From the NCBI GenBank assembly GCA_049513715.1, contig JBEKVV010000003.1:160001-224000 (forward strand): a stretch of DNA of 64,000 nt, written 5' to 3'. Under the pieces are notes generated by a model. That model worked only from the letters and a program-made list of their open reading frames with translations, was not told the DNA's origin and ran no database searches. The position numbers and the translations under genes were made by a program. This document shows, piece after piece, positions 5,894 to 22,476 of this stretch. Within the stretch, counting starts at the first letter, position 1. The number at the start of each line of letters is the position of its first letter. The DNA comes from Candidatus Bathyarchaeia archaeon (GTDB lineage Archaea; Thermoproteota; Bathyarchaeia; 40CM-2-53-6).

Positions 5894-6033
5894 TATGGTT
5901 CTTTCCGTTTCGCACTTTTCGAATACACGGCTAGGCAGTCGTTCCTCTCTCGTACAGCTGGAAGTTTGAACTCATTAATGGTTCGCAGCGTCTCTGGGCG
6001 ATAAGAATAGGATTGTCAGCGAACCTGTGAGGG

Positions 6034-6082
6034 GATCCCGTGGCGTGGGCCTTCGTGGGTTCAAATCCCACCGGCCCCACCA
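6034..6082 (+). tRNA. tRNA 3'-half fragment (class II/Leu-like variable arm, T-arm, acceptor 3' strand, CCA); no 5' half present
   Basis: GATCCCG-T-GGC GTGG GCC-TTC-GTGGG TTCAAAT CCCAC-CGGCCCC-A-CCA. The complementary GGGGCCG 5' strand and D-arm are absent upstream. Confidence 0.65.
6055..6082 (+). repeat. attL core (28-bp direct repeat)
   Basis: GTGGGTTCAAATCCCACCGGCCCCACCA, identical to 21344-21371 and 60 bp upstream of the integrase. Confidence 0.9.
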
Positions 6083-6141: not shown

Positions 6142-7554
6142 TTGCCTTACAAGAGTCTTGAGAGCTTCCTGACCAAGACTGACGATCCTTGTGTCAAGGA
6201 ATGGATATTGAGCCTTAGAGAGGGCTCAAAGACCTACGTGCCATACGTTCTGGATTTTGTCGAATGGGGCAAGGCTCACAAGCATTGGAAATCGCCCAGC
6301 GATGATTTGCTTCCCCGCTGGAAACGACTGCGAAAGAGCAAGAATGAGGATGCCCAGAACGACTTTCTTTCAATAATACATGACTACGTTAGTGACAAGA
6401 GTGACAGGCATGGCAAGTTAACTGGCAACGTTGACCGCCAGAACTGTTGGGCGGCAATCTGCAACTTCTTCAGACACAAACACAAGTACAAGAAAATCGG
6501 CAAGCAGCCACTGCCCGATCTAGACCCGGAAGATGAAGACCGGCTATTCAGGATAAGCGAAGGGGACAAACTGAGAGCGCAGTTCATTGGTTCTATGAAT
6601 GTGGACGAGGCAAACCTCATCATCGAAAACGCCCCAATGCCCTACCGAGCAGTCTTTGTGGTTATGCTTCAAGCCGGATTCGGTGGAGCTGAATTCCAGA
6701 TATTCAATGAAACCGCTTGGCGTGAGATCGTGAAAGACACTGCAAACCCGAAGGAATTCCCGAAGGAACTCCGTCCAGGTTCCCTCGCCAAGGTGCAGAT
6801 TCTACGCAGTAAGACAAGCCGAAGGCAAGCCCAGACGTACTACACCTATCTGACTGACGATGCGAAGAAATTGATCAGTGAGTGGCTTAGAATGCGCCCC
6901 GTCTGCGACCTACCTCACCTATTCATAATCAAGCAGAAAGGGAGAAGAAAGACTGGGACATACGCTCCAGTTACTACGCCACTTATCGAGAATACAATGA
7001 CGGCACTTGCCAAGAGGTTCAACATGTTGAGACCGCAGGAATTGCAGATTCACCGCTATCACATAACGCCGCACAAGCTCCGCAAAGTCTTCGAAGGACT
7101 CTGTCTGACTAGCGGCGTTGACGAGTGGGCGGTTGACTTCTTCCTCGGTCACAAACCCAGTCGCTACAATGAAGTGCCCTGGACAACTCCGAAAAAGATG
7201 GAAGAAGAGTATCAGAGAGCCGTACCTACGCTGAATATTCTCTCAAGTCCTAACAGGGCGAGAAGCAAACAGGATATGATGCGTGTTGCACAAACGGAAT
7301 TCAAGAAGCTGGTACTTTCTGAGAGGTTTCCGGGAAGAGAGATTACGCAAGATGATGTTGAGGGCAAGAGTATGGATGAGATTTTCAGGATGACTCGGGA
7401 GCACTCCCGGGGTCGTGAAAGGCATGCAGACAAGGTGAGAAAGCAGAAGGTCGTGTCTATGAAGGCACTTGCCAAGTGGGTTGACAGCGGCTGGGAGTTT
7501 GTGCAGAAAGTGTCCGATAAGCAGGTGATTATTCGGTCTCCGCCATCCGCTTAG
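6142..7554 (+). CDS. int: Tyrosine recombinase/integrase
   Basis: HITPHKLRK (HxxR), FFLGH and a catalytic Tyr in SRYNE. C-terminal QKVV...GWEFV tail. The first catalytic Arg region reads QAGFGGAE, which is divergent. Adjacent to an att site. Confidence 0.85.
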   Translation: MPYKSLESFLTKTDDPCVKEWILSLREGSKTYVPYVLDFVEWGKAHKHWKSPSDDLLPRWKRLRKSKNEDAQNDFLSIIHDYVSDKSDRHGKLTGNVDRQNCWAAICNFFRHKHKYKKIGKQPLPDLDPEDEDRLFRISEGDKLRAQFIGSMNVDEANLIIENAPMPYRAVFVVMLQAGFGGAEFQIFNETAWREIVKDTANPKEFPKELRPGSLAKVQILRSKTSRRQAQTYYTYLTDDAKKLISEWLRMRPVCDLPHLFIIKQKGRRKTGTYAPVTTPLIENTMTALAKRFNMLRPQELQIHRYHITPHKLRKVFEGLCLTSGVDEWAVDFFLGHKPSRYNEVPWTTPKKMEEEYQRAVPTLNILSSPNRARSKQDMMRVAQTEFKKLVLSERFPGREITQDDVEGKSMDEIFRMTREHSRGRERHADKVRKQKVVSMKALAKWVDSGWEFVQKVSDKQVIIRSPPSA

Positions 7555-8444: not shown

Positions 8445-9608
8445 TTGGAAAGTCCGATACGTAAATTCAGCTATGGACGTGTGACCTTAAGGTACGGCGG
8501 TTCGCTTCCTCGACCGCAGATCATGTGGGACGGACTTGATTTGGTCAATGCGCTGCGGACACCCGTTCCTACCGATGAGCTAGTGCATGATGTGTGTGAA
8601 TTACTTTGTATTCTACTCAAGTCCGACAAGCACTATTGGCATGCCACATTGAACCGATTCTTCGAGGCATTCACACCCACCTGGAAGTCCCTAGTTAGAG
8701 AAGGCAAGATCAGTGACGCCGCTTCAATGTGGATTCACGTTTTGAGTTCTGTGCGGGCGTGGGAAAATCGCTCCGGTAATCTCATCCACAAAGGAACCCC
8801 CTATTACTTTCTCGGAGCGACATACCTTTACGGGTACGATTTCGATCGTGGTCTTCGATACATCTTTGACGCATTCGAGGAAGATAAAAGAGCAACTTCG
8901 GGCGATCCAACGTTGTACAAAGCGATGCCTGCATACAAGGTTGCATCGCTCATCGATCAACCTGACAACTATCTGTATCCAGAACTTGTCCTGCCTGCAC
9001 GAATTCGTATTGACGGATTTCTGAAAGAATATCGTTCTCGCTCAGGTTCCACCATGCAAATGGCAGATTTTGAGAGTAAGTTTCTGAGCAATTCAGTGTT
9101 CGAGATTCAAAAATTCTTCTTTGTATACTCATTGCTTGAAACAATCAAACATGAAGCGACGTGGGAACCCGGCTCCGTACGAAATGAATTCTCGGAAATG
9201 AGAAATCGAGATTTGCTATTCGATCTCTGCATAGTGGTTGACGAAATCCTGAGGGTCAGATTCCCCCCTGCAACATTCATTTCTGCAGGAGTCTTCAACT
9301 TGTGCAGGAGCAAAGGCTGGGTCACTTTGGATAGTAATTCTACTCAGCTCAATCAGAATTTGAACCCGAAGGTGGCTGAATTTCCTCCTACTCCGACACC
9401 AAGGCCAGATGTGGTTGTACCAACACTACTCGACAGGACAATGACCTATCGTGGAGCGCATCTTTCGCAGGAAATGTCGTGGATGCTACTTGCATGGCAC
9501 CTAAGGAACTATGCAGCACACGATCTCAGCCCTCAAGGTGTACTCGTTAAGAGGCATAATGAAATAACTCAAGCGCTGATGAATGCTCTGTTTACAGCAA
9601 TAGAGTGA
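8445..9608 (+). CDS. TPR-like helical protein with C-terminal HEPN-like RNase motif
   Basis: HKGTPYYFLGATYLYGYDFDRGL TPR-like repeat and C-terminal LRNYAAH (R-x4-H). Confidence 0.6.
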   Translation: MESPIRKFSYGRVTLRYGGSLPRPQIMWDGLDLVNALRTPVPTDELVHDVCELLCILLKSDKHYWHATLNRFFEAFTPTWKSLVREGKISDAASMWIHVLSSVRAWENRSGNLIHKGTPYYFLGATYLYGYDFDRGLRYIFDAFEEDKRATSGDPTLYKAMPAYKVASLIDQPDNYLYPELVLPARIRIDGFLKEYRSRSGSTMQMADFESKFLSNSVFEIQKFFFVYSLLETIKHEATWEPGSVRNEFSEMRNRDLLFDLCIVVDEILRVRFPPATFISAGVFNLCRSKGWVTLDSNSTQLNQNLNPKVAEFPPTPTPRPDVVVPTLLDRTMTYRGAHLSQEMSWMLLAWHLRNYAAHDLSPQGVLVKRHNEITQALMNALFTAIE

Positions 9609-10393: not shown

Positions 10394-10634
10394 TGTGAAG
10401 ATGTGAAAATCTCTTCTCTGCGACTGGAAAAACGAGAGCCGCAAGGTGCATTGAAAAGTGGAAATCGAAGAGCAGCAAGAAAGCGAATACGAGGCATCAA
10501 GGCGATATTTTGAAGCATAAACCGGTGTGGTTTTCGATTTGCGTTATGGCAGGGTTCATATTCTCTTTCGTTTGGCAGGCTTATGTGACAACAGATGCGA
10601 TAGTTAGACCATTGTGTCTACTGGGCGGGGTACA

Positions 10635-10784
10635 ATGAGTTATTCGGACGAGGTCGTAAACGACGTGTACGACAAGAACGGTGGGTATTGCTCTTACTGC
10701 CGCAGGAAAATTCATTTCCGAAATTACGGTGGAGGCGATGCTGTTGGTGGCTTCCCCACTACTTTACGACCGGTCGATCTTTAG
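10635..10784 (+). pseudogene. Truncated HNH-endonuclease-like ORF
   Basis: MSYSDEVVNDVYDKNGGYCSYCRRKIHFRNYG resembles the Zn-binding N-terminus of HNH nucleases and stops before any DH motif. Overlaps the stop of a 42-aa TM ORF (10510-10638). Confidence 0.5.
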
Positions 10785-10893
10785 GGTCTATACGATTCTT
10801 CGCTGGGTCGCTCATTTGTTGCGCTGAGTCTCCTCAGCATTCTCATGGAATACGTCGTTCGTGGCACAATCAGGCTGGTGTCGGGATAGGCTA

Positions 10894-13800
10894 TCAGGAC
10901 TTCCAATGTTCACGTATGTATTCCGCAGCTTCTTGCACGTTCAGTGGTTTGCATGTATTTCCCACTCTGATGTAGAATTCAGGTGTTTTTTGTTCGTTCC
11001 GACAGTAAACAGCGTGACCGCTGGGATCGACCTTTATTCCCAGAACGGTTTTTCCATTCAGTTCAGCCCATGACAGGTGAATGTTCATGCTGTCTTGAGC
11101 ATTCATCGGGCGCTGATTTCCAAATAAGCTCATGAGTTTCTGTTCGTATCCGTCCTTGTCAGGTCTCTTAGATAGACAAGGAAAGTCTTTCTCTAAACCG
11201 AGGATTTCACCGTTATCTGCGACTCCAATTATCAAGGTGCCTCCTCTGGAGTTCATAAATGCACTGAGGTCTTTTGCCACGGCAAACTCAAGTGATTGAT
11301 TGACCTTGTTGAGTTTGTAATCCCACATTAGCGAAGATTTGAATTCTGTAGATTCCCCTTCGCCTCTCTTGATTACGTCCTCAATTCGTGCCTCACGTGG
11401 TGTTCGCAGTATTGTTTGGGTTGTCCGGCGAACGATGACTCTGTCTCTTAGGCTTCTCATTGTTGGAATTAGTGCTTCGAATGAGCCGCTACCTTGCTCG
11501 TAAACCTTGTCGGTAATCATGAGGTACTCCCATTTGAGGGGTTGCTTGACTCCTTGGGGTAGTTCAAGGTTGTTTGCGCTCTTCGCCCATGTGTAAGCTG
11601 CTAGGGCTTTCGTGCCTACGTTTTCATTGTCGAGGTCTTTCTCTGCTTTCGTTTCGATAAGGTACATCGCTTCTTTCGTCTTCACGAGGAAGTCGATCTC
11701 GTAGTTCCTTAGTATGCTGAATTCGTCTCGATAGGGAATTTTGAGTGCATGCTTCTTGTCGAGCTTGGCATAGGCGATTACGTCAACCGAATTCTCTAGT
11801 GTGCGTGTCATGAAGTTTCTCTCGAAGCCTCCGCCTTTCGCTGCCACAGCCTGTTTCGGGTAGATGCATTTCCATGTGTCTACTGCTGTTTTCTCTCTAA
11901 TGTGAATTTGTGCGACCGAAGAGAGTGGTTGCCATTGACCGGTCTTTGTGTAGCGTATTTGTCCCATCAATTTGATTAGTCGATTCCGGACTTCCTTCAC
12001 AATGTGATCGAACACCAATGGATCGTTAAGCACCGGGTAGTTTTCTGCGAGGCTGAAATCAATGTCTTTACCAAACAGTTGGTAGGAAACGTATCTGTCT
12101 AAGACTTCAGTGATTTCGGCTAAATGCCCGGTCAGCAGTGCCGATTTTCCTTCCTGCGCAATAGTCTTAGTTGCGTTTGCCAAGAAATAATTGTAGTCAA
12201 AATACCGATTTTCCAGCTTCCACGTTTTCACATGTTTGCCTGTATCCATCTGCGTCTCCGTAACGAACAGCTTGCTTCTTGAACTACGGAAGGTCTCGAA
12301 GTCATCCAATAAGGGGAAGGGGGGAAGTGTCTCAATCCCGATCTCCTCAATGTCAGGGAACTTCCCCTGTTCAAATATCTGAATTGGCCAGTACAAGTCA
12401 AGTTCAGGAATTCTTGACGGAATCGCATCAACGGCGATTACAGAACCTGTTACTGACCCCGTAGTTCCGGTGCCGATGATATATCCCTGCTCTTTCAGAC
12501 GTTCGTAGAAGGCTCGGAACCTCGGATGTTCAACAATGAAGAGAAAATCGTATGATGAATTCGGTTGCCTGTTACCCTTTATTGCCTCTAGCGCTTCGAC
12601 CTTCTCCTGCCAAATTGCTTCATTCTCATATTTCGGAAACATGAGCCGTAGCCCTCTGCCAACGATTTGCTCCAGTAGCAGGTCAGCTTCTGCAGCACGC
12701 AGAACAACTATGACGCAGATGTTCTTCCTGTCGAAACCCTCTCGAAGCATGAGGACGGATACAACTACGTTTAGAGAGTCGTTGTTGTAGTCTATTTTAT
12801 TGAGCCTTAGACGTGCCTCCTCCAGCTCCTTGTCGCCAAGCCCTGTATGAATTCTCATAACCTTTGTTTGATCATAGGGTTTGTTTTCTGGAGTAAAGAG
12901 GGTCTCCATGTGACGTGCAACAAGGTTAGCTACCTCCGTTTCTTCGCAGAGGATTAGCATCACGGGTTTCTTCTCAATTTGTTTCTCATGGAACTCGGTC
13001 GCTATCTGTTCAAGCTTTGTTTTCCCAATCAGGAGTAGAGTCTTTTGACCTGGCGAGAGACCTATCAACTCCCCAACTCTCTTACCTGATTCGGGCGGTT
13101 TACGTGCCGCCTTCCATTCTTGCCCAGACAACATGCGTAGTTCGATTGTTTCGCCGCCAATCGGTTGTTTTTCCACGAGAAAGAGCTGTTTAACCAGCAT
13201 CTGGCGGCTCGCCAATTTCAGATCGTAGTCGTAAACTATGTGCGAGAAGTAGCGTTTCTGCGTGCCTGACCCGAAAAATGGCGTGGCGGAGTAGTCGATT
13301 TGCATGAATAGCTTGCGTTTCACACCGTATCGTTCTATCATTCGTTTATTGAGTAAAGTGATAAATCTGCGCCAAACAAGCTCTATGTCCCCTTTCCCCG
13401 TTACGGATGCCGAGTGGACATGATGCGCCTCATCGTTCATTATGACAATATCAGGGTGTTCTGTTAAGAAGTCGAGAAGAAATTCTCCCCTTGGTTGTTC
13501 TTCAATCTCTTCCCCCGTGATTTGTTCCCAAAGAGACTCCTTGTCTGTCTTCAGTTGAAACTGCTGCCAGTTCGTAATGAAAACAAAGGCACCGTCCGGA
13601 GATAATCGGTTGGCTCTCACGTCAATTGGTTCGAGTAGCTCGAAATTGAAGTCTGTTCTCCATTCGGGTGGTACAAACAGCCCTCGGTTGACATCCGCCT
13701 TCTGTATGTCTCGCAGACCACTAGTCGGATCAACCGAACCCTCGAAAGCATCGAAAATGCGATTCAGAACCTCATGTCCAGGAGTAACGATCATGAAACG

Positions 13801-14271
13801 GTTCGAGTACCAGTCTTCTGAAGTCCCACTCGCTGCCGGGGGTTTCTCGTTTCTTAGCACGTTGAAGTATTGCCAAACGACTAGTGCGATGAGCACCCAT
13901 GTCTTTCCAGTTCCAGTTGCCATCTTGAGACAGTCTTTGATGAATGGCGAGGCTTCAACTTCGTCCGAGAATGCTTTGCTCCAGTTCAGCGCATCTGGCG
14001 CCACCCGTTGATACAGCTCTTTCAACGTGCGAGCCTGAAGTATCTCATGACAGTAAATAATAGTCTCAATAGCACGACGTTGGCAAGCAAAGAATTTCTC
14101 AGACGCTTCTTCTGGTCTGTCAAACCAATAGTGAAGCAAGTTGTATGTTGTCTGTGTCACTCCATGCCATCCTTCGTCACTCCAAGCCTTCACTTCTCCG
14201 CTTTCACCGTCTTCTCCGTTAAGGCGAGCCGCCAACAGAAGCTGCTCGAAAAGGAGTACCTCCCGAGGCAT
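10894..14271 (-). CDS. res: Type III restriction enzyme Res subunit with C-terminal AlbA_2/Schlafen domain
   Basis: MATGTGKT, DEAHH, SATP, LREGFD and EQIVGRGLR helicase motifs; IDFLV...LIETK PD-(D/E)xK nuclease; then GESTEFKSS...SAFMNSRGGTLIIGVADNG. GAGGTGA RBS before ATG 14271. Confidence 0.9.
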   Translation of the reverse strand: MPREVLLFEQLLLAARLNGEDGESGEVKAWSDEGWHGVTQTTYNLLHYWFDRPEEASEKFFACQRRAIETIIYCHEILQARTLKELYQRVAPDALNWSKAFSDEVEASPFIKDCLKMATGTGKTWVLIALVVWQYFNVLRNEKPPAASGTSEDWYSNRFMIVTPGHEVLNRIFDAFEGSVDPTSGLRDIQKADVNRGLFVPPEWRTDFNFELLEPIDVRANRLSPDGAFVFITNWQQFQLKTDKESLWEQITGEEIEEQPRGEFLLDFLTEHPDIVIMNDEAHHVHSASVTGKGDIELVWRRFITLLNKRMIERYGVKRKLFMQIDYSATPFFGSGTQKRYFSHIVYDYDLKLASRQMLVKQLFLVEKQPIGGETIELRMLSGQEWKAARKPPESGKRVGELIGLSPGQKTLLLIGKTKLEQIATEFHEKQIEKKPVMLILCEETEVANLVARHMETLFTPENKPYDQTKVMRIHTGLGDKELEEARLRLNKIDYNNDSLNVVVSVLMLREGFDRKNICVIVVLRAAEADLLLEQIVGRGLRLMFPKYENEAIWQEKVEALEAIKGNRQPNSSYDFLFIVEHPRFRAFYERLKEQGYIIGTGTTGSVTGSVIAVDAIPSRIPELDLYWPIQIFEQGKFPDIEEIGIETLPPFPLLDDFETFRSSRSKLFVTETQMDTGKHVKTWKLENRYFDYNYFLANATKTIAQEGKSALLTGHLAEITEVLDRYVSYQLFGKDIDFSLAENYPVLNDPLVFDHIVKEVRNRLIKLMGQIRYTKTGQWQPLSSVAQIHIREKTAVDTWKCIYPKQAVAAKGGGFERNFMTRTLENSVDVIAYAKLDKKHALKIPYRDEFSILRNYEIDFLVKTKEAMYLIETKAEKDLDNENVGTKALAAYTWAKSANNLELPQGVKQPLKWEYLMITDKVYEQGSGSFEALIPTMRSLRDRVIVRRTTQTILRTPREARIEDVIKRGEGESTEFKSSLMWDYKLNKVNQSLEFAVAKDLSAFMNSRGGTLIIGVADNGEILGLEKDFPCLSKRPDKDGYEQKLMSLFGNQRPMNAQDSMNIHLSWAELNGKTVLGIKVDPSGHAVYCRNEQKTPEFYIRVGNTCKPLNVQEAAEYIREHWKS

Positions 14272-14276
14272 ATTAT

Positions 14277-16373
14277 TCACCTCAAGTCGGCTGAGCATGT
14301 CGCTGTGGCATCATTTCCGAAAATGTCAACAGCACGTATCGCAATTGTATATTTCTTGCCCGTGGATAAGTTATGCGCCGTACTTAGAGGGACTTCCTTG
14401 ATTGCCTTTCCAAACCCCCTGAATGCTTGCCAAGATGACTTGAACGTGAAGCCGTCATAATCCCAATCGATCGCCCAATAGTCCAAGAGAGCTGCGAAGT
14501 TCTTCTTCACAACTTCTTGAACTTCCTCTCTAGACTTCTCATCTTCGACTGGTAAATCGTATAGAATGTATCTTTCAATTCCGACGCTTACGGTTGCTTG
14601 TCCTTTCGAACGTTCTACTTTCGGTTTGGATAACTTTAGAAACGGCTTATCGTGGAAGGTCACTTTACCTGCTAAAGAGTCGATATCTTCTGTGCTACTA
14701 TGCGTTTTCAAATACTCGTAAACTTCTGGTGGTATTGTTCGGTTAGAAATCTCAACTCTCATCTTCCGCAGGATTGGGCGTAGGACGGTCGCAAGGATTT
14801 CCTCATAATTATATTCATAGTCCCAGCCTAGAATTACTAGGCGCTGATAACCTGTTCCGTCTAGGGTCTCCGCCAAGTGAGCAAGTTCCTCGGTCTTCTT
14901 TGCCGTTACCGCTCTGTCTGGGTATCCGACATAAACGAGTTCATTGACGCCATCATCAGCTTTCTTCGTTCCAAGTTCCGGAAAATCCTTACGAGGCATC
15001 GCGCCGTAGAGTTTCAATACAATATGCTGCATTTCAAAGATTCTGCCGCCCGAGAGATAGATCATGTGTCTTTGATAGTTGCCTATGTTCTCAAGCAGGA
15101 ACGGACGGGAGTCCAAAGTGACTAGTCTATTTCTTGAGATTTGAATTGCGGTCTTGGAGAAATCGCATCCGATCCATCGGCGTCCGAGTCGTTCTGCCAC
15201 TGCAGTGGTCGTTCCCGATCCAAGGAAGAAGTCCGCTACCAAGTCCCCGGGGTTTGAGGACGTGCTGATTATTCGTTCAAGCAACTTCTCGGGTTTCTGC
15301 GTATCAAAATCCAGTCTCTCAATGGCCATTGGGTTGACAATGGGTATGTCCGTCCAGATGTTTTGAATCATTTGCCCCTCATATTTATCCAGGTAAATCT
15401 TCCGATAGATGCGTCCACTGTTGGCTTGTGGCATCACTAGTTCATTGTTCTTGAACATCTCTTCCATTCTTTCTTTGGAGTACAACCATCCTTTGGGCGG
15501 AGGATGAACGCCATGGAATTCATAAATCAGATTACGCCTAAGCAGCGGGTTCACTAAGGGAGATTTTCTATATTTGCCTCTGCCATCTCCATCGTCGAAC
15601 ACGAATCTCTCCGCAATGTATTGCTGAGTATTCGGATCATCTTTTGAGTACAGAGGATTGAATACACGCTGATCTGACTTTGAATACAGAAATATCGCAT
15701 CGTTCGTTATGCCGAACCGATCGGTTTCCCAAGCTTGTGTTCCCTTTCGTTGCCAAACAATTTCATTGACGAAATTATCTCTCCCAAAAATCTCATCCAT
15801 GATAATTTTGACGTAATGCCCGACATGCCAATCAATGTGCAGATAGATGGAACCGTGCTGCGACAGAAGTTTCTTCATCAAATGCAATCTGGGATAAAGC
15901 ATGTCCAGATAAGAATCAATTCCACCCTCCCAGTAGTCCTTGTAAGCGAGCCGCTCGATGACCGATGGGGACATGGTCACTTCCTCGCCGTTCATTTTCA
16001 CAGTGTAGTAGTAGTTTTCTCCAGTCCAGAACGGCGGGTCGATGTAGATTAGGTCAATTTTCCCTTCATATCCTGATGCCAGCAACGCTTGCATGGTGAG
16101 CAAGTTGTCCCCCCAAATGAGCCTATTCATTTTCGTACGATTAATCTCAACCTTAGATATGTTAGCGAAAAAAGTCGAAATTCTTTGTTGGTCTCTGTTC
16201 GGGTTTGGCAGAACTATTTCGGCAGTCTGGAATTCTATGTCTTTAGGGTTAGGTGCCCGCTTAGGCTTGGTGTCCCAGACCAATCTTGCTGAATCTTTTT
16301 TTCTCTTCTCCGGGAGCTGTTCTAGGTTTATGCTGGCTGCCGTCAAATCACGTCCGCTTTCTTGAGTTTTCAT
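14277..16373 (-). CDS. mod: Type III R-M adenine methyltransferase (Mod, beta class)
   Basis: LIWGDNL and IYIDPPF (motif IV) precede DFFLGSGTT (motif I); TQKPEKLL. Directly upstream of res. Confidence 0.93.
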   Translation of the reverse strand: MKTQESGRDLTAASINLEQLPEKRKKDSARLVWDTKPKRAPNPKDIEFQTAEIVLPNPNRDQQRISTFFANISKVEINRTKMNRLIWGDNLLTMQALLASGYEGKIDLIYIDPPFWTGENYYYTVKMNGEEVTMSPSVIERLAYKDYWEGGIDSYLDMLYPRLHLMKKLLSQHGSIYLHIDWHVGHYVKIIMDEIFGRDNFVNEIVWQRKGTQAWETDRFGITNDAIFLYSKSDQRVFNPLYSKDDPNTQQYIAERFVFDDGDGRGKYRKSPLVNPLLRRNLIYEFHGVHPPPKGWLYSKERMEEMFKNNELVMPQANSGRIYRKIYLDKYEGQMIQNIWTDIPIVNPMAIERLDFDTQKPEKLLERIISTSSNPGDLVADFFLGSGTTTAVAERLGRRWIGCDFSKTAIQISRNRLVTLDSRPFLLENIGNYQRHMIYLSGGRIFEMQHIVLKLYGAMPRKDFPELGTKKADDGVNELVYVGYPDRAVTAKKTEELAHLAETLDGTGYQRLVILGWDYEYNYEEILATVLRPILRKMRVEISNRTIPPEVYEYLKTHSSTEDIDSLAGKVTFHDKPFLKLSKPKVERSKGQATVSVGIERYILYDLPVEDEKSREEVQEVVKKNFAALLDYWAIDWDYDGFTFKSSWQAFRGFGKAIKEVPLSTAHNLSTGKKYTIAIRAVDIFGNDATATCSADLR

Positions 16374-16618
16374 GCTGATTCATCAGGCAATTACATATCT
16401 GCGCAGGTTGGAGAATAGGGTTTGTGGTTCGATACAACGGGATGTATCTGAATTTCGAATAGCCCCGACATTTGTCCGATCGCCGCCAAAAAAGGCGGGG
16501 GCTGTAGAATCATACGCAGGCAACCTTTGTAGACAGCCTAGGATATTCAGAGCAGATTGCAAGGTCTCAAGTGAGCGCATGATGAAGAAAGAAGGCTTCC
16601 AAAGAGTAAGTGAGGAAA

Positions 16619-19963: not shown

Positions 19964-20255
19964 GGTTCTTTCCCAAGAGTGGGTGGATTACTCACTATGA
20001 TTTCGCTTTTTCGCAGTGCGCCAAGCTTCTACTTGCTTTGCCCGAAAGTTCGAAGAGGTTATCTCCGATTTCGATTTGACAGCAATTCAAGAACAGTTTG
20101 CGATCAGTCACCAGGGAAAAAGTGACAGAATTCTCACAAAACCGTAACGCCGTAGCACCAGGCGCATAAGAGATAATCTGCCACTTTTTCAAATGACACT
20201 CCGAGGGCCAAGAGTCTCTAAATATGAGATTCTCAGACTCTCCTTTGGTAGTTTT

Positions 20256-21314
20256 ATGATTGTTTTCTTGGGAGCAGGTGCTTCGGCTCCATTCGACTTC
20301 CCGACGATGCCTAAACTAGTACATATACTGTGGAACCATCTTTCTGGCAACGATAAAACCCTCTTCAAGCTTCTATGCGCCTCCAAGAATAGTGGAGATA
20401 CAGAAAATGTTCTGATGACGATCGAGCAAATCAGTTCTATAGCAAACAGTCCAATTGCTGCAATATTCAAACCGTATCAATTACCCCCAAGGATAGGCAG
20501 ATTAGCTCTGCCAAGATTGAACTTCGAAACACTGGTACAGAGTCTTAGAAGCCTTCGTGAGCACATGTACGATGAAATCTTTGAGGTTTACCAGACGAAA
20601 CCTATGACTCGATTGAATTTCGAGCTTTACTCGGAGTTGTTCTCGATCATAGGAAAAAAAGCAGAGAGTAAAGGTCACTTGGTGTTTACAACAAACTACG
20701 ACACGATTATTGAAGACTTCTGTGCGGCAACCCAACGGTACGAACTTAGAGATGGATTTGAGCATGACACCACTAGCGGTAGACACCTTTGGAGTGATCT
20801 ATCATTCGACCGACCAGTATCTTATGCTCCCAAGCCCACGATCAAGTTGTTCAAGGTGCATGGATCGTTAGGCTGGAAGGAGAGCATTCCCTATGGTATA
20901 GAAAAAGTAACACTTGAAAAAAGGGTCGAGTCCAGTCCGACTAGTGTGCACACTAGAGACTTGATCATTTACCCAGGTAGTAAGAATCCCCCTGATCGGC
21001 ATCCCTTTACTTACTTGTATGATCGTTTTGAAACAGAAATGAAAACTGCTGATCAGTGCGTGGTGATTGGTTACTCGTTCAGAGACGACTACCTGAATAG
21101 GGTTTTCAGGAATTTCATTTTCTCTCAGCAGAAAAGAAAGAGGCTATACGTAATTAGCAAGACATCGGAAGAAACGCTGTGGAAAAACCTTCTGGGGCTC
21201 AAGCGCAAAGCTGCTTTGAAGCACTATGTTTTCAGTAAGATGGTTATCCCTATTCCCTGCCACTTTGGAGAGAACGGCTGGTCTAAGGAAATCACGGCGA
21301 AACTACAGGAATAG
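20256..21314 (+). CDS. SIR2-like (SIR2_2) domain protein, putative defence NADase
   Basis: VFLGAGAS, FTTNYD, KVHGSLGW, IYPG and VIGYSFRD motifs. Confidence 0.88.
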   Translation: MIVFLGAGASAPFDFPTMPKLVHILWNHLSGNDKTLFKLLCASKNSGDTENVLMTIEQISSIANSPIAAIFKPYQLPPRIGRLALPRLNFETLVQSLRSLREHMYDEIFEVYQTKPMTRLNFELYSELFSIIGKKAESKGHLVFTTNYDTIIEDFCAATQRYELRDGFEHDTTSGRHLWSDLSFDRPVSYAPKPTIKLFKVHGSLGWKESIPYGIEKVTLEKRVESSPTSVHTRDLIIYPGSKNPPDRHPFTYLYDRFETEMKTADQCVVIGYSFRDDYLNRVFRNFIFSQQKRKRLYVISKTSEETLWKNLLGLKRKAALKHYVFSKMVIPIPCHFGENGWSKEITAKLQE

Positions 21315-21343
21315 CGTTTTTTTGGCTATTAGTCCCACGATTT

Positions 21344-21371
21344 GTGGGTTCAAATCCCACCGGCCCCACCA
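21344..21371 (+). repeat. attR core (28-bp direct repeat)
   Basis: Identical to 6055-6082. Preceded by TTAGTCCCACGATTT. Confidence 0.9.
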
Positions 21372-21633
21372 TATCATGGGTTTAACAGCCCGATTTTGAG
21401 GGCGTTCTTCTCATTTTAACCGTATTCGAAGGCTCCCTGAGTCAAGGCATACGAAGAATTTACTCAGAGTAACTGAGAATGATAAGGATGACTAGAGAGG
21501 GTAACGTCAAGATGACGGTTGCTAGAGCGAATTTTTCTCCCTGTAAATTATCGGTTGCTAACCAACTATTTTGGTTCTGTTAAGACTTCGCGTGATGTTT
21601 TTTCTGTTAAGCATCGGGTGGAGCTACCACACA

Positions 21634-21867
21634 CTAACGGACGACATTGAGCACGCCGTATCTCCACAGGACGAACCAAATGTTAATCAGGAGCGGTATC
21701 AGCGTAACAACAATGACACAGAACGTCAGTACGCCATAGCCGAATTTGACCGTGTAAAATTTCGTTATCTTCACGTGGTTTATTGATATCAGGTAAAATA
21801 TGATTGCGTCGGTAAGACCGATGATGATGATTGCGCGAAGAGTCAAATCATAAAGTAACGAAAACAT
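21634..21867 (-). CDS. Small membrane protein
   Basis: GGAGGTGA RBS upstream; two hydrophobic segments. Confidence 0.55.
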   Translation of the reverse strand: MFSLLYDLTLRAIIIIGLTDAIIFYLISINHVKITKFYTVKFGYGVLTFCVIVVTLIPLLINIWFVLWRYGVLNVVR

Positions 21868-21947
21868 TCAACTCACCTCCTCTGACCATCATGAAAAGGA
21901 TTTCTCATATCAAGCACCAATACACAATCGCCTTCATACAATACCAC

Positions 21948-22226
21948 TCATTTATTCGAGTTCTCTGTTTTCCGAGAAACCACCGCCCAAAAATCCCAAA
22001 CCCAAAATCGCTGATTGTCCGTTCTTCGCAGGTATCTCCACCAGAACTCCAAATTCACTGTAAGAACGAAGAGGGTAAGGGCGGTTATCAAAGCGACCGT
22101 TTCAAAGAAATTAGCCACGAAGGTTTGCATATCGCGTGAAACAGCGTAGAATGCAACAGCGTTTATGAGAGTAACTACGGAAATTACTCGCAGGAACAGA
22201 TGTTCTTTGCTCGTTAATCCTTTCAA
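21948..22226 (-). CDS. Small membrane protein
   Basis: Two hydrophobic segments and a Trp/Arg-rich tail. Confidence 0.5.
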   Translation of the reverse strand: MKGLTSKEHLFLRVISVVTLINAVAFYAVSRDMQTFVANFFETVALITALTLFVLTVNLEFWWRYLRRTDNQRFWVWDFWAVVSRKTENSNK

Positions 22227-22476
22227 CTTTCACGCACCTACCCGATAGGTACACACACATAAAGTAACGAAAGTCCCATTCAACCCTCCTCCTCTCGTTT
22301 CGGCTTTGATGGATTCGATTGACGAGGCTTGACAAAGATAACTATTTACCCACCTTGAGCCCGCATCTTCCATTCCAGTCGGTAATCACCCGTCAACTTA
22401 ACAGAACCACTATTTTTCTGTTAACTGAGAATGCATGTGCCAACCAATTCGTAGGCTAGCTAGCGGGTTCTATGCG

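Follow-up and report, generated by a model that had tools for sequence, protein, structure and literature searches.

Among the known systems nearest to the one reported here is EcoP15I, a type III restriction-modification (R-M) enzyme encoded by a mod-res operon. It combines a beta-class Mod with a Res subunit that contains a superfamily 2 (SF2) ATPase, a helical spacer, and a PD-(D/E)xK nuclease (PDB 4ZCF; PMC4490356). The same arrangement is found in a 64,000-nucleotide stretch of DNA, hereafter the window, from a Candidatus Bathyarchaeia archaeon (GenBank assembly GCA_049513715.1, contig JBEKVV010000003.1, positions 160,001 to 224,000), whose genome carries archaeal rRNA. Unlike EcoP15I, the window Res belongs to a distant subfamily and ends in a 165-residue Schlafen (AlbA_2) domain. 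This fusion is real, selected, and recurrent. Judged from its sequence, the Schlafen half looks catalytic, and it very probably serves as a gated RNase of some kind.

Schlafen domains have been described on several carriers. Published fusions join them to methyltransferases (PMC13462974), HsdS (bioRxiv 10.64898/2026.05.29.728809), and TRD, DUF262, and PD-(D/E)xK domains (PMC13056530, supplementary file 21), and one report counts Schlafens among the backup effectors of BREX loci (PMC12839542). The methyltransferase and HsdS fusions (cluster 3 of PMC13462974; the same bioRxiv report; pSlfn19, pSlfn22, pSlfn34) resemble the window protein in having an R-M subunit as carrier and in being exchanged between defence proteins. 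In those descriptions, however, the domain sits on the modification or specificity subunit or on a small nuclease, whereas in the window it sits on the motor-nuclease subunit. The pSlfn7 family (DUF262-Schlafen, EcoSlfn7; PMC13056530), compared here by its published description, also places a C-terminal Schlafen with an Ex4(E/D)xK motif on a restriction-type carrier, and DUF262 fusions, at 33-45% identity, rank with the most frequent relatives of the window domain. The window carrier is instead a type III Res with an intact DNase and a cognate Mod, and Pfam gives no GmrSD_N/DUF262 match in the protein.

PrrC of EcoprrI and the HEPN-REase and HEPN-helicase fusions (PMC3710099) likewise place an RNase as a second line behind restriction and illustrate repeated fusion of RNases to restriction subunits. 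PrrC stands as an ABC-ATPase/HEPN protein of its own, associated with a type I system, whereas the window combines a metal-dependent Schlafen fold with Res in one type III chain and has no ABC or HEPN domain. RzAgo (SLFN-pAgo), CbCash (Cash), and human SLFN11 offer a possible analogy, as in each a nucleic-acid-sensing module is described as gating a Schlafen tRNase through its assembly state, and SLFN11, in addition, has a helicase in the same protein as its Schlafen RNase. In these proteins oligomerisation has a domain of its own (GHKL, Csx15) or a second lobe is present, whereas the window domain is one-lobed and has neither. A Res-Schlafen fusion was not found in the literature searched or in the tables of two surveys, a coverage outside which most subscription papers and some supplements fall. 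The table of 5,930 proteins in PMC13056530 (file 21) holds no ResIII/PF04851 entry and 17 P-loop fusions of at most ~690 residues, and in the supplementary table of the Cash paper each of the 41 rows that lie near a type III system has a length between 218 and 630 residues. Placement of a Schlafen domain on a type III motor-nuclease subunit therefore appears undescribed; neither the individual parts nor the overall concept is new.

The res-Schlafen gene is a single open reading frame (ORF). The preliminary description had Res running in frame into an AlbA_2/Schlafen domain of ~165 residues, and this is borne out: no stop or frameshift separates the nuclease from the Schlafen domain, and the motifs it quoted lie at residues 979 (GEGESTEFK), 1012 (SAFMNSRGG), and 1108 (FYIRVGN). 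Residue numbers follow the 1134-residue frame, but translation more likely begins at the ATG at 14271 (residue 10), which lies 5 nt behind a GAGGTGA element overlapping the mod stop and gives 1125 residues. This 1125-residue form (P0271) is recorded on 25 contigs. Contigs from four of the 24 listed sequencing runs each cover 10500-16600 unbroken with 0 differing letters and 0 gaps; these runs may be the source of the window DNA, and the comparison is of contigs, not reads. Fused homologues at 69-96% identity support the fusion independently, and so do 8 other metagenome loci at which the fused ORF is uninterrupted. The unbroken ORF, the other fused loci, and the run contigs rule out an assembly artefact or read-through of two genes.

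The C-terminal domain is assigned by profile, motif, and predicted fold. SLFN_AlbA_2 (PF04326), the profile against which the preliminary description proposed to scan the C-terminus, matches residues 980-1120 over its full length (1-118 of 118) with 67.7 bits against a cut-off of 25.3 (E 1.7e-18). Both hallmarks of catalytic Schlafens, E-x4-(E/D)-x-K and the SAFxN box, are present as E980, E985, and K987 (encoded at nt 11361-11338) and as SAFMN at residues 1012-1016. This triad corresponds to E209/E214/K216, essential in SLFN11 (PMC9482658), and to E17/D22/K24 of CbCash (PMC13462974). Mutation of the equivalent positions is reported to abolish tRNA cleavage in SLFN11 (PMC9482658), CbCash (PMC13462974), and RorSlfn5 (PMC13056530). 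Across the subfamily, represented by 172 unique domains drawn from 442 proteins, E980 and E985 are each conserved in 172/172 and K987 in 171/172. Among Res-fused domains, 27 of 27 retain the whole triad, although the four residues between E980 and E985 vary. In the structural model, the segment from residue 963/964 to 1133/1134 matches DIP2311 (3lmm_A; Z 12.6, root-mean-square deviation (rmsd) 3.1, 135 aligned) and the SAMD9 domain 7ksp_B (Z 12.5, rmsd 3.6, 156 aligned), so the predicted fold is that of a Schlafen C-lobe. Sequence matches in the PDB to mammalian Schlafens reach only E 0.02-1, a tblastn search of 50,697 phage records gives no match to the domain, and PADLOC has no model for the Schlafen domain on its own. 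As a lead only, an Atlas search places the domain at 0.75 to a cluster of BglII-like nuclease-Schlafen proteins.

Purifying selection acts on both halves of the protein. The ratio of nonsynonymous to synonymous substitution rates (dN/dS) is 0.07-0.16 for the Schlafen domain and 0.02-0.10 for the Res core, calculated from 8 fused loci including L029, the window's own contig, in the 11 of 28 pairs whose dS is unsaturated. By these sequence comparisons the fusion is maintained by selection, and the Schlafen domain is a predicted RNase.

The Res half is a type III-type motor and nuclease of a separate subfamily. Pfam ResIII matches residues 109-340 with 34.7 bits (cut-off 22.5), and Helicase_C matches residues 434-551 with 21.4 bits, under its cut-off of 23.5. 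Fused and unfused Res alike, 18 of 18 in the alignment, share D869, E882, and K884 of the nuclease domain. An AlphaFold2 model built from a 103-row alignment has a predicted local distance difference test score (pLDDT) of 81.7, compared with 31 for a single-sequence model. Its top fold match is EcoP15I Res (4zcf_C), ranked first by Foldseek (E 1.2e-11) and by VIA-align (Z 14.7, rmsd 4.8, 398 aligned), at 13-17% sequence identity. PADLOC REase_III also matches (E 5e-26), and with its SF2 motifs, C-terminal PD-(D/E)xK nuclease, and EcoP15I-like fold the protein has the features of a type III Res. It nevertheless falls under the curated NCBIfam cut-offs (nearest BPTD_3080, 194.8 against 800 bits; PRK15483, 20.3 against 564 bits), and this distance places it in a separate subfamily, although it probably acts as a type III Res does. 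The idea of a disarmed Res that acts purely as a sensor is ruled out by the retained D869, E882, and K884 and by the nuclease-domain dN/dS of 0.03-0.10.

Mod is a beta-class amino-methyltransferase. Beta-class Mods are defined by a DPP(Y/F) motif before the variable target-recognition domain (TRD), together with FxGxG (PMC4490356). The window Mod has DPPF at residue 112, a variable target-recognition region at ~201-350, and FLGSGTT at 383. The type III order of adjacent, co-directional mod and res is present in the window and at 8/8 other fused loci, at two of which mod is truncated by the contig end. A promoter and terminator scan gave nothing above chance. The Mod target-recognition region is 74-80% identical to that of an unfused system (L039:2065-4128) but only 12-40% identical to those of the other 10 Mods compared, fused ones included. 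This pattern points to TRD shuffling and to a fusion that, judged by sequence identity, is not tied to one recognition site.

Res-Schlafen fusions are rare and patchy. Of 512 full-length Res matches, 120 are listed and 7 of these carry PF04326; the clusters of the 7 fused proteins hold 43 members, some of them fragments. Fused ORFs occur at 9 of 70 metagenome loci (one of which is the window contig) compared with 0 of 24 genome loci. The window Res was found in 0 of 58 other genomes of the same family and 0 of 400 others of the same class. Distant fusions include P0127 (39%), P0231 (a fragment), and P0324 (named from a Chloroflexota genome).

The approximately unbiased (AU) test rejects a single fused clade for the Schlafen tree (p 3.9e-7) and also for the Res tree (p 2e-78), a value to be read with caution since that tree has long branches. 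On these trees, Res has gained the Schlafen domain at least three times, always at the same end. The count is at least three and not four because a single origin of the two groups A and B is not rejected (AU p 0.21; support 69/71). Res cores of groups A and B are 72-75% identical, but their Schlafen domains only 46-53%, whereas pairs within group A at 77-78% Res identity retain 66-74% Schlafen identity. The group B domain is sister to that of the non-Res protein P0193 (support 99/96, identity 75-79%), and together these identities indicate that the Schlafen domain was probably swapped between the two Res groups.

The domain behaves as a C-terminal module on other carriers as well. It ends at most 20 residues from the C-terminus in 198 of 201 proteins, and the same module is carried by DUF262, BrxL (P0310, P0416), bPH_2, SBP_bac_3, and response regulator proteins and by further carriers, with sensor proteins represented. 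The same archaeal phylum contains long DUF262-type proteins with a C-terminal Schlafen (L108:3772-6501, L109, L110); as candidate Res these three long ORFs are ruled out, being DUF262-type by eye. Beside the fusions, mod is the only conserved gene, and no third gene such as a cognate antitoxin was found in common among the 8 other fused loci. In 4 of 94 loci (L006, L061, L062, L081) a separate Schlafen gene directly precedes an unfused res, which indicates that the Res family recruits Schlafen in cis and in trans; at L006 (3181-11998) the order is mod, a PHP/ATPase gene, a Schlafen-ATPase gene, and res. At L028:3776-7453, a 1226-residue gene product with a SIR2-like GAGVS start (by eye) directly follows a 96%-identical fused res. 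The host genome has a second Schlafen gene (L002:1450-2910; G000:C5) whose 486-residue product carries the domain at its N-terminus and which adjoins an N-glycosylase-like ORF. Its motif is given as Q-x4-E-x-K; IETTKLEHK reads E-x4-E-x-K.

The tentatively favoured explanation is that the Schlafen domain of Res may be a backup tRNase, switched on when two Res meet on unmethylated foreign DNA. Type III holoenzymes are reported with the stoichiometry Res1Mod2 (PMC4005696), and DNA cutting requires two nuclease domains to converge (PMC6158743). One-lobed RzAgo Schlafens pair to rebuild a bilobed site, and recognition of a DNA target licenses tRNA cleavage (bioRxiv 10.64898/2026.05.29.728809); CbCash is activated by polymerisation (PMC13462974). 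If the window complex holds one Res, as in EcoP15I, its one-lobed Schlafen would normally be unpaired and silent without an antitoxin. Recognition of unmethylated sites would start ATP-driven sliding, and as two Res nuclease domains converge, the Schlafen domains, which in the model are attached directly behind the nuclease through a low-confidence linker, would be brought together. Tethering to the nuclease would thus leave each Schlafen single in the resting state and let it pair on unmethylated DNA alone, since each complex holds one Res and cutting needs convergence. Paired domains would then cut tRNA using a divalent metal held by E980, E985, and K987. Ordinary restriction would involve brief encounters at little cost, whereas many or unresolved encounters, as in heavy infection or when DNA is recognised but uncut, would lead to tRNA depletion and cell arrest. 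The broader proposition, that the head-on meeting of Res is a switch that pairs two half-Schlafens into a tRNase and that this design evolved on three or more occasions across archaea and bacteria, is doubtful.

Several observations weigh against activation by pairing. Known Schlafens are described in assemblies larger than dimers (a tetramer for RzAgo, a filament for CbCash, and a hexamer for RorSlfn5), and a pair of domains may therefore be too few. A single Res in each complex has been shown only for EcoP15I, EcoPI, and PstII, and the window Res is distant from EcoP15I in identity and far under the cut-offs of the type III models. Dissociation of type III enzymes can follow cleavage (PMC3413136), which may make pairing too short-lived, and a trigger that fires at every successful restriction would carry a cost. 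Three carriers of the module (bPH_2, SBP_bac_3, response regulator) lack a known defence role, and only 2 of 7 bacterial Schlafen systems tested gave defence in E. coli. In addition, 113 of the 120 listed Res matches are without the domain. Unfused P0007 retains the linker and ends exactly there, which suggests from sequence that it lost its Schlafen; no Schlafen remnant was found downstream of the unfused close relatives L043 and L044.

The preliminary description proposed restriction plus a backup tRNase, freed in the manner of PrrC when the R-M complex is inhibited. Backup tRNase activity remains the likeliest role, given the domain identity, the conserved triad, purifying selection, and location in a defence island, but no specific support was found for the PrrC-type trigger. 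Under that trigger, an intact Mod-Res complex would keep the Schlafen RNase shut until a viral anti-restriction protein or loss of Mod frees it. PrrC and PrrI provide the precedent, the same idea has been put forward for fusions of HEPN RNases with REases and with R-M helicases (PMC3710099), and without a conserved antitoxin gene Mod or Res is the sole candidate for restraint. PrrC's own regulator, an ABC ATPase, is absent from the window protein by Pfam, however, and a domain that differs more than its carrier between groups A and B, and that in group B resembles the domain of a non-Res protein, is portable. The low-confidence linker, the unrelated carriers, and the probable swap fit a portable effector activated by pairing better than a co-evolved R-M restraint, and a PrrC-like guard is rather unlikely. 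Gating of an active RNase by some other cue (cut DNA ends, single-stranded DNA, the ATP state of a single Res, or a viral protein), or an rRNA or viral mRNA substrate, is unlikely. The Cash paper speculates that R-M-linked Schlafens sense DNA-cleavage structures, like the SLFN11 helicase (PMC13462974), and RorSlfn5 is triggered by a phage protein (PMC13056530), but the window protein has no dedicated sensor domain besides Res itself, and all three bacterial Schlafens with a substrate shown in the available reports cut tRNA.

Two further explanations dispense with an RNase role. That the domain only binds nucleic acid, an alternative already raised in the preliminary description, would make it a clamp or processivity aid for Res. 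The older family annotation reads "putative DNA-binding domain," the SAMD9 structure is titled as a DNA-binding domain with DNA, and non-catalytic Schlafens exist (PMC9482658). Those described there are without one triad residue, whereas the Res fusions keep the catalytic motif intact and under purifying selection, and most Res relatives function without the domain, so this reading is very unlikely. An accidental fusion of a neighbouring Schlafen gene, carried as a functionless passenger, would suit the patchy distribution and the separate Schlafen genes that directly precede some unfused res genes. It is highly improbable in view of the low dN/dS of the domain, the frame kept across proteins 69-96% identical, and the three or more separate occasions on which Res acquired the domain, each time at the same end. 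After these alternatives, pairing on unmethylated DNA is still the tentative preference.

The mod-res-Schlafen operon is, by the sequence features collected in Table 1, mobile defence cargo in a 15.3-kb integrated island. GC content is 0.44-0.49 across 8-21 kb compared with ~0.51 outside. The integrase matches are weak (Pfam E 0.0018; NCBIfam XerA_Arch E 6e-05; PHROG integrase E 9e-05).

Table 1. Features of the integrated island and its mod-res-Schlafen operon, in window coordinates.
Feature	Position	Strand	Basis or remark
res-Schlafen fusion gene	10894..14298	minus	single ORF, 1134 residues counted from the first ATG
Schlafen/AlbA_2 domain, residues 970-1134, single lobe	10897..11391	minus	Pfam match, triad, fold
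Linker following the last nuclease-domain helix	11392..11433	minus	pLDDT < 50 at residues 962-982
PD-(D/E)xK DNase domain, residues ~821-955, D869/E882/K884	11434..11838	minus	three residues invariant in aligned Res
SF2 helicase-like ATPase core	12646..13923	minus	Walker A MATGTGKT (126), DEAH (289), SATP (337), QIVGRGLR (544)
mod, beta-class amino-methyltransferase, 698 residues	14277..16373	minus	N6_N4_Mtase 157.6 bits (Pfam)
28-bp perfect direct repeat, tRNA 3'-end-like, likely attL	6055..6082	plus	
Second copy of the 28-bp repeat, likely attR	21344..21371	plus	bounds the 15.3-kb element
Tyrosine recombinase-like integrase beside the left repeat	6142..7554	plus	weak matches
Stand-alone SIR2-like gene	20193..21314	plus	Pfam SIR2_2 43.7 bits; PADLOC SIR2 E 1.7e-24

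The island holds other genes and sequence features. The SIR2_2 gene ends 30 nt before the right repeat, and its best PADLOC matches are the SIR2 and Argonaute-associated SIR2 models; no Argonaute gene was recognised beside it. A 387-residue ORF at 8445-9608 (plus strand) has no Pfam match but has a helical, TPR-like N-terminal part and a C-terminal R-x4-H (RNYAAH), and Atlas places it next to HEPN families at 0.81-0.84, which is no more than a lead. From its sequence, it is possibly a second RNase effector in the island. A 33-bp piece at 16481-16513 is common to other contigs in two of the four runs, with loose ends on both sides, and a second copy was not found in this assembly. Just past the right repeat, several stretches of 21328-22383 are 74-98% identical to C1:639218-640006 and may be what is left of a related element.

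The left repeat forms the end of a tRNA-like 3' half at 6020-6082 that ARAGORN missed and that has a long Leu-like variable arm (cf. C1:340197-340234). Its last 30 nt are identical to a tRNA-like 3' end at C2:373500. The latter is presumably Pro, by tRNA consensus. No matching 5' half was found upstream, and the 6020-6082 half may be a chimeric or split tRNA.

As a two-gene system, the window operon is about the simplest place to probe the trigger of a Schlafen RNase. The carrier, DNase, and RNase are separately mutable in one chain, and natural unfused relatives at ~70% identity serve as controls. On its predicted activities, one protein would unite a DNA-cutting first defence with a likely shutdown of protein synthesis as backup. 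If the head-on meeting of two Res does act as the switch, restriction would meter an abortive response without an antitoxin, a second messenger, or a sensor of viral proteins. The system would also provide a case from the archaea in which restriction is linked to an arrest of translation, and a prokaryotic counterpart of SLFN11 with its helicase-gated RNase.

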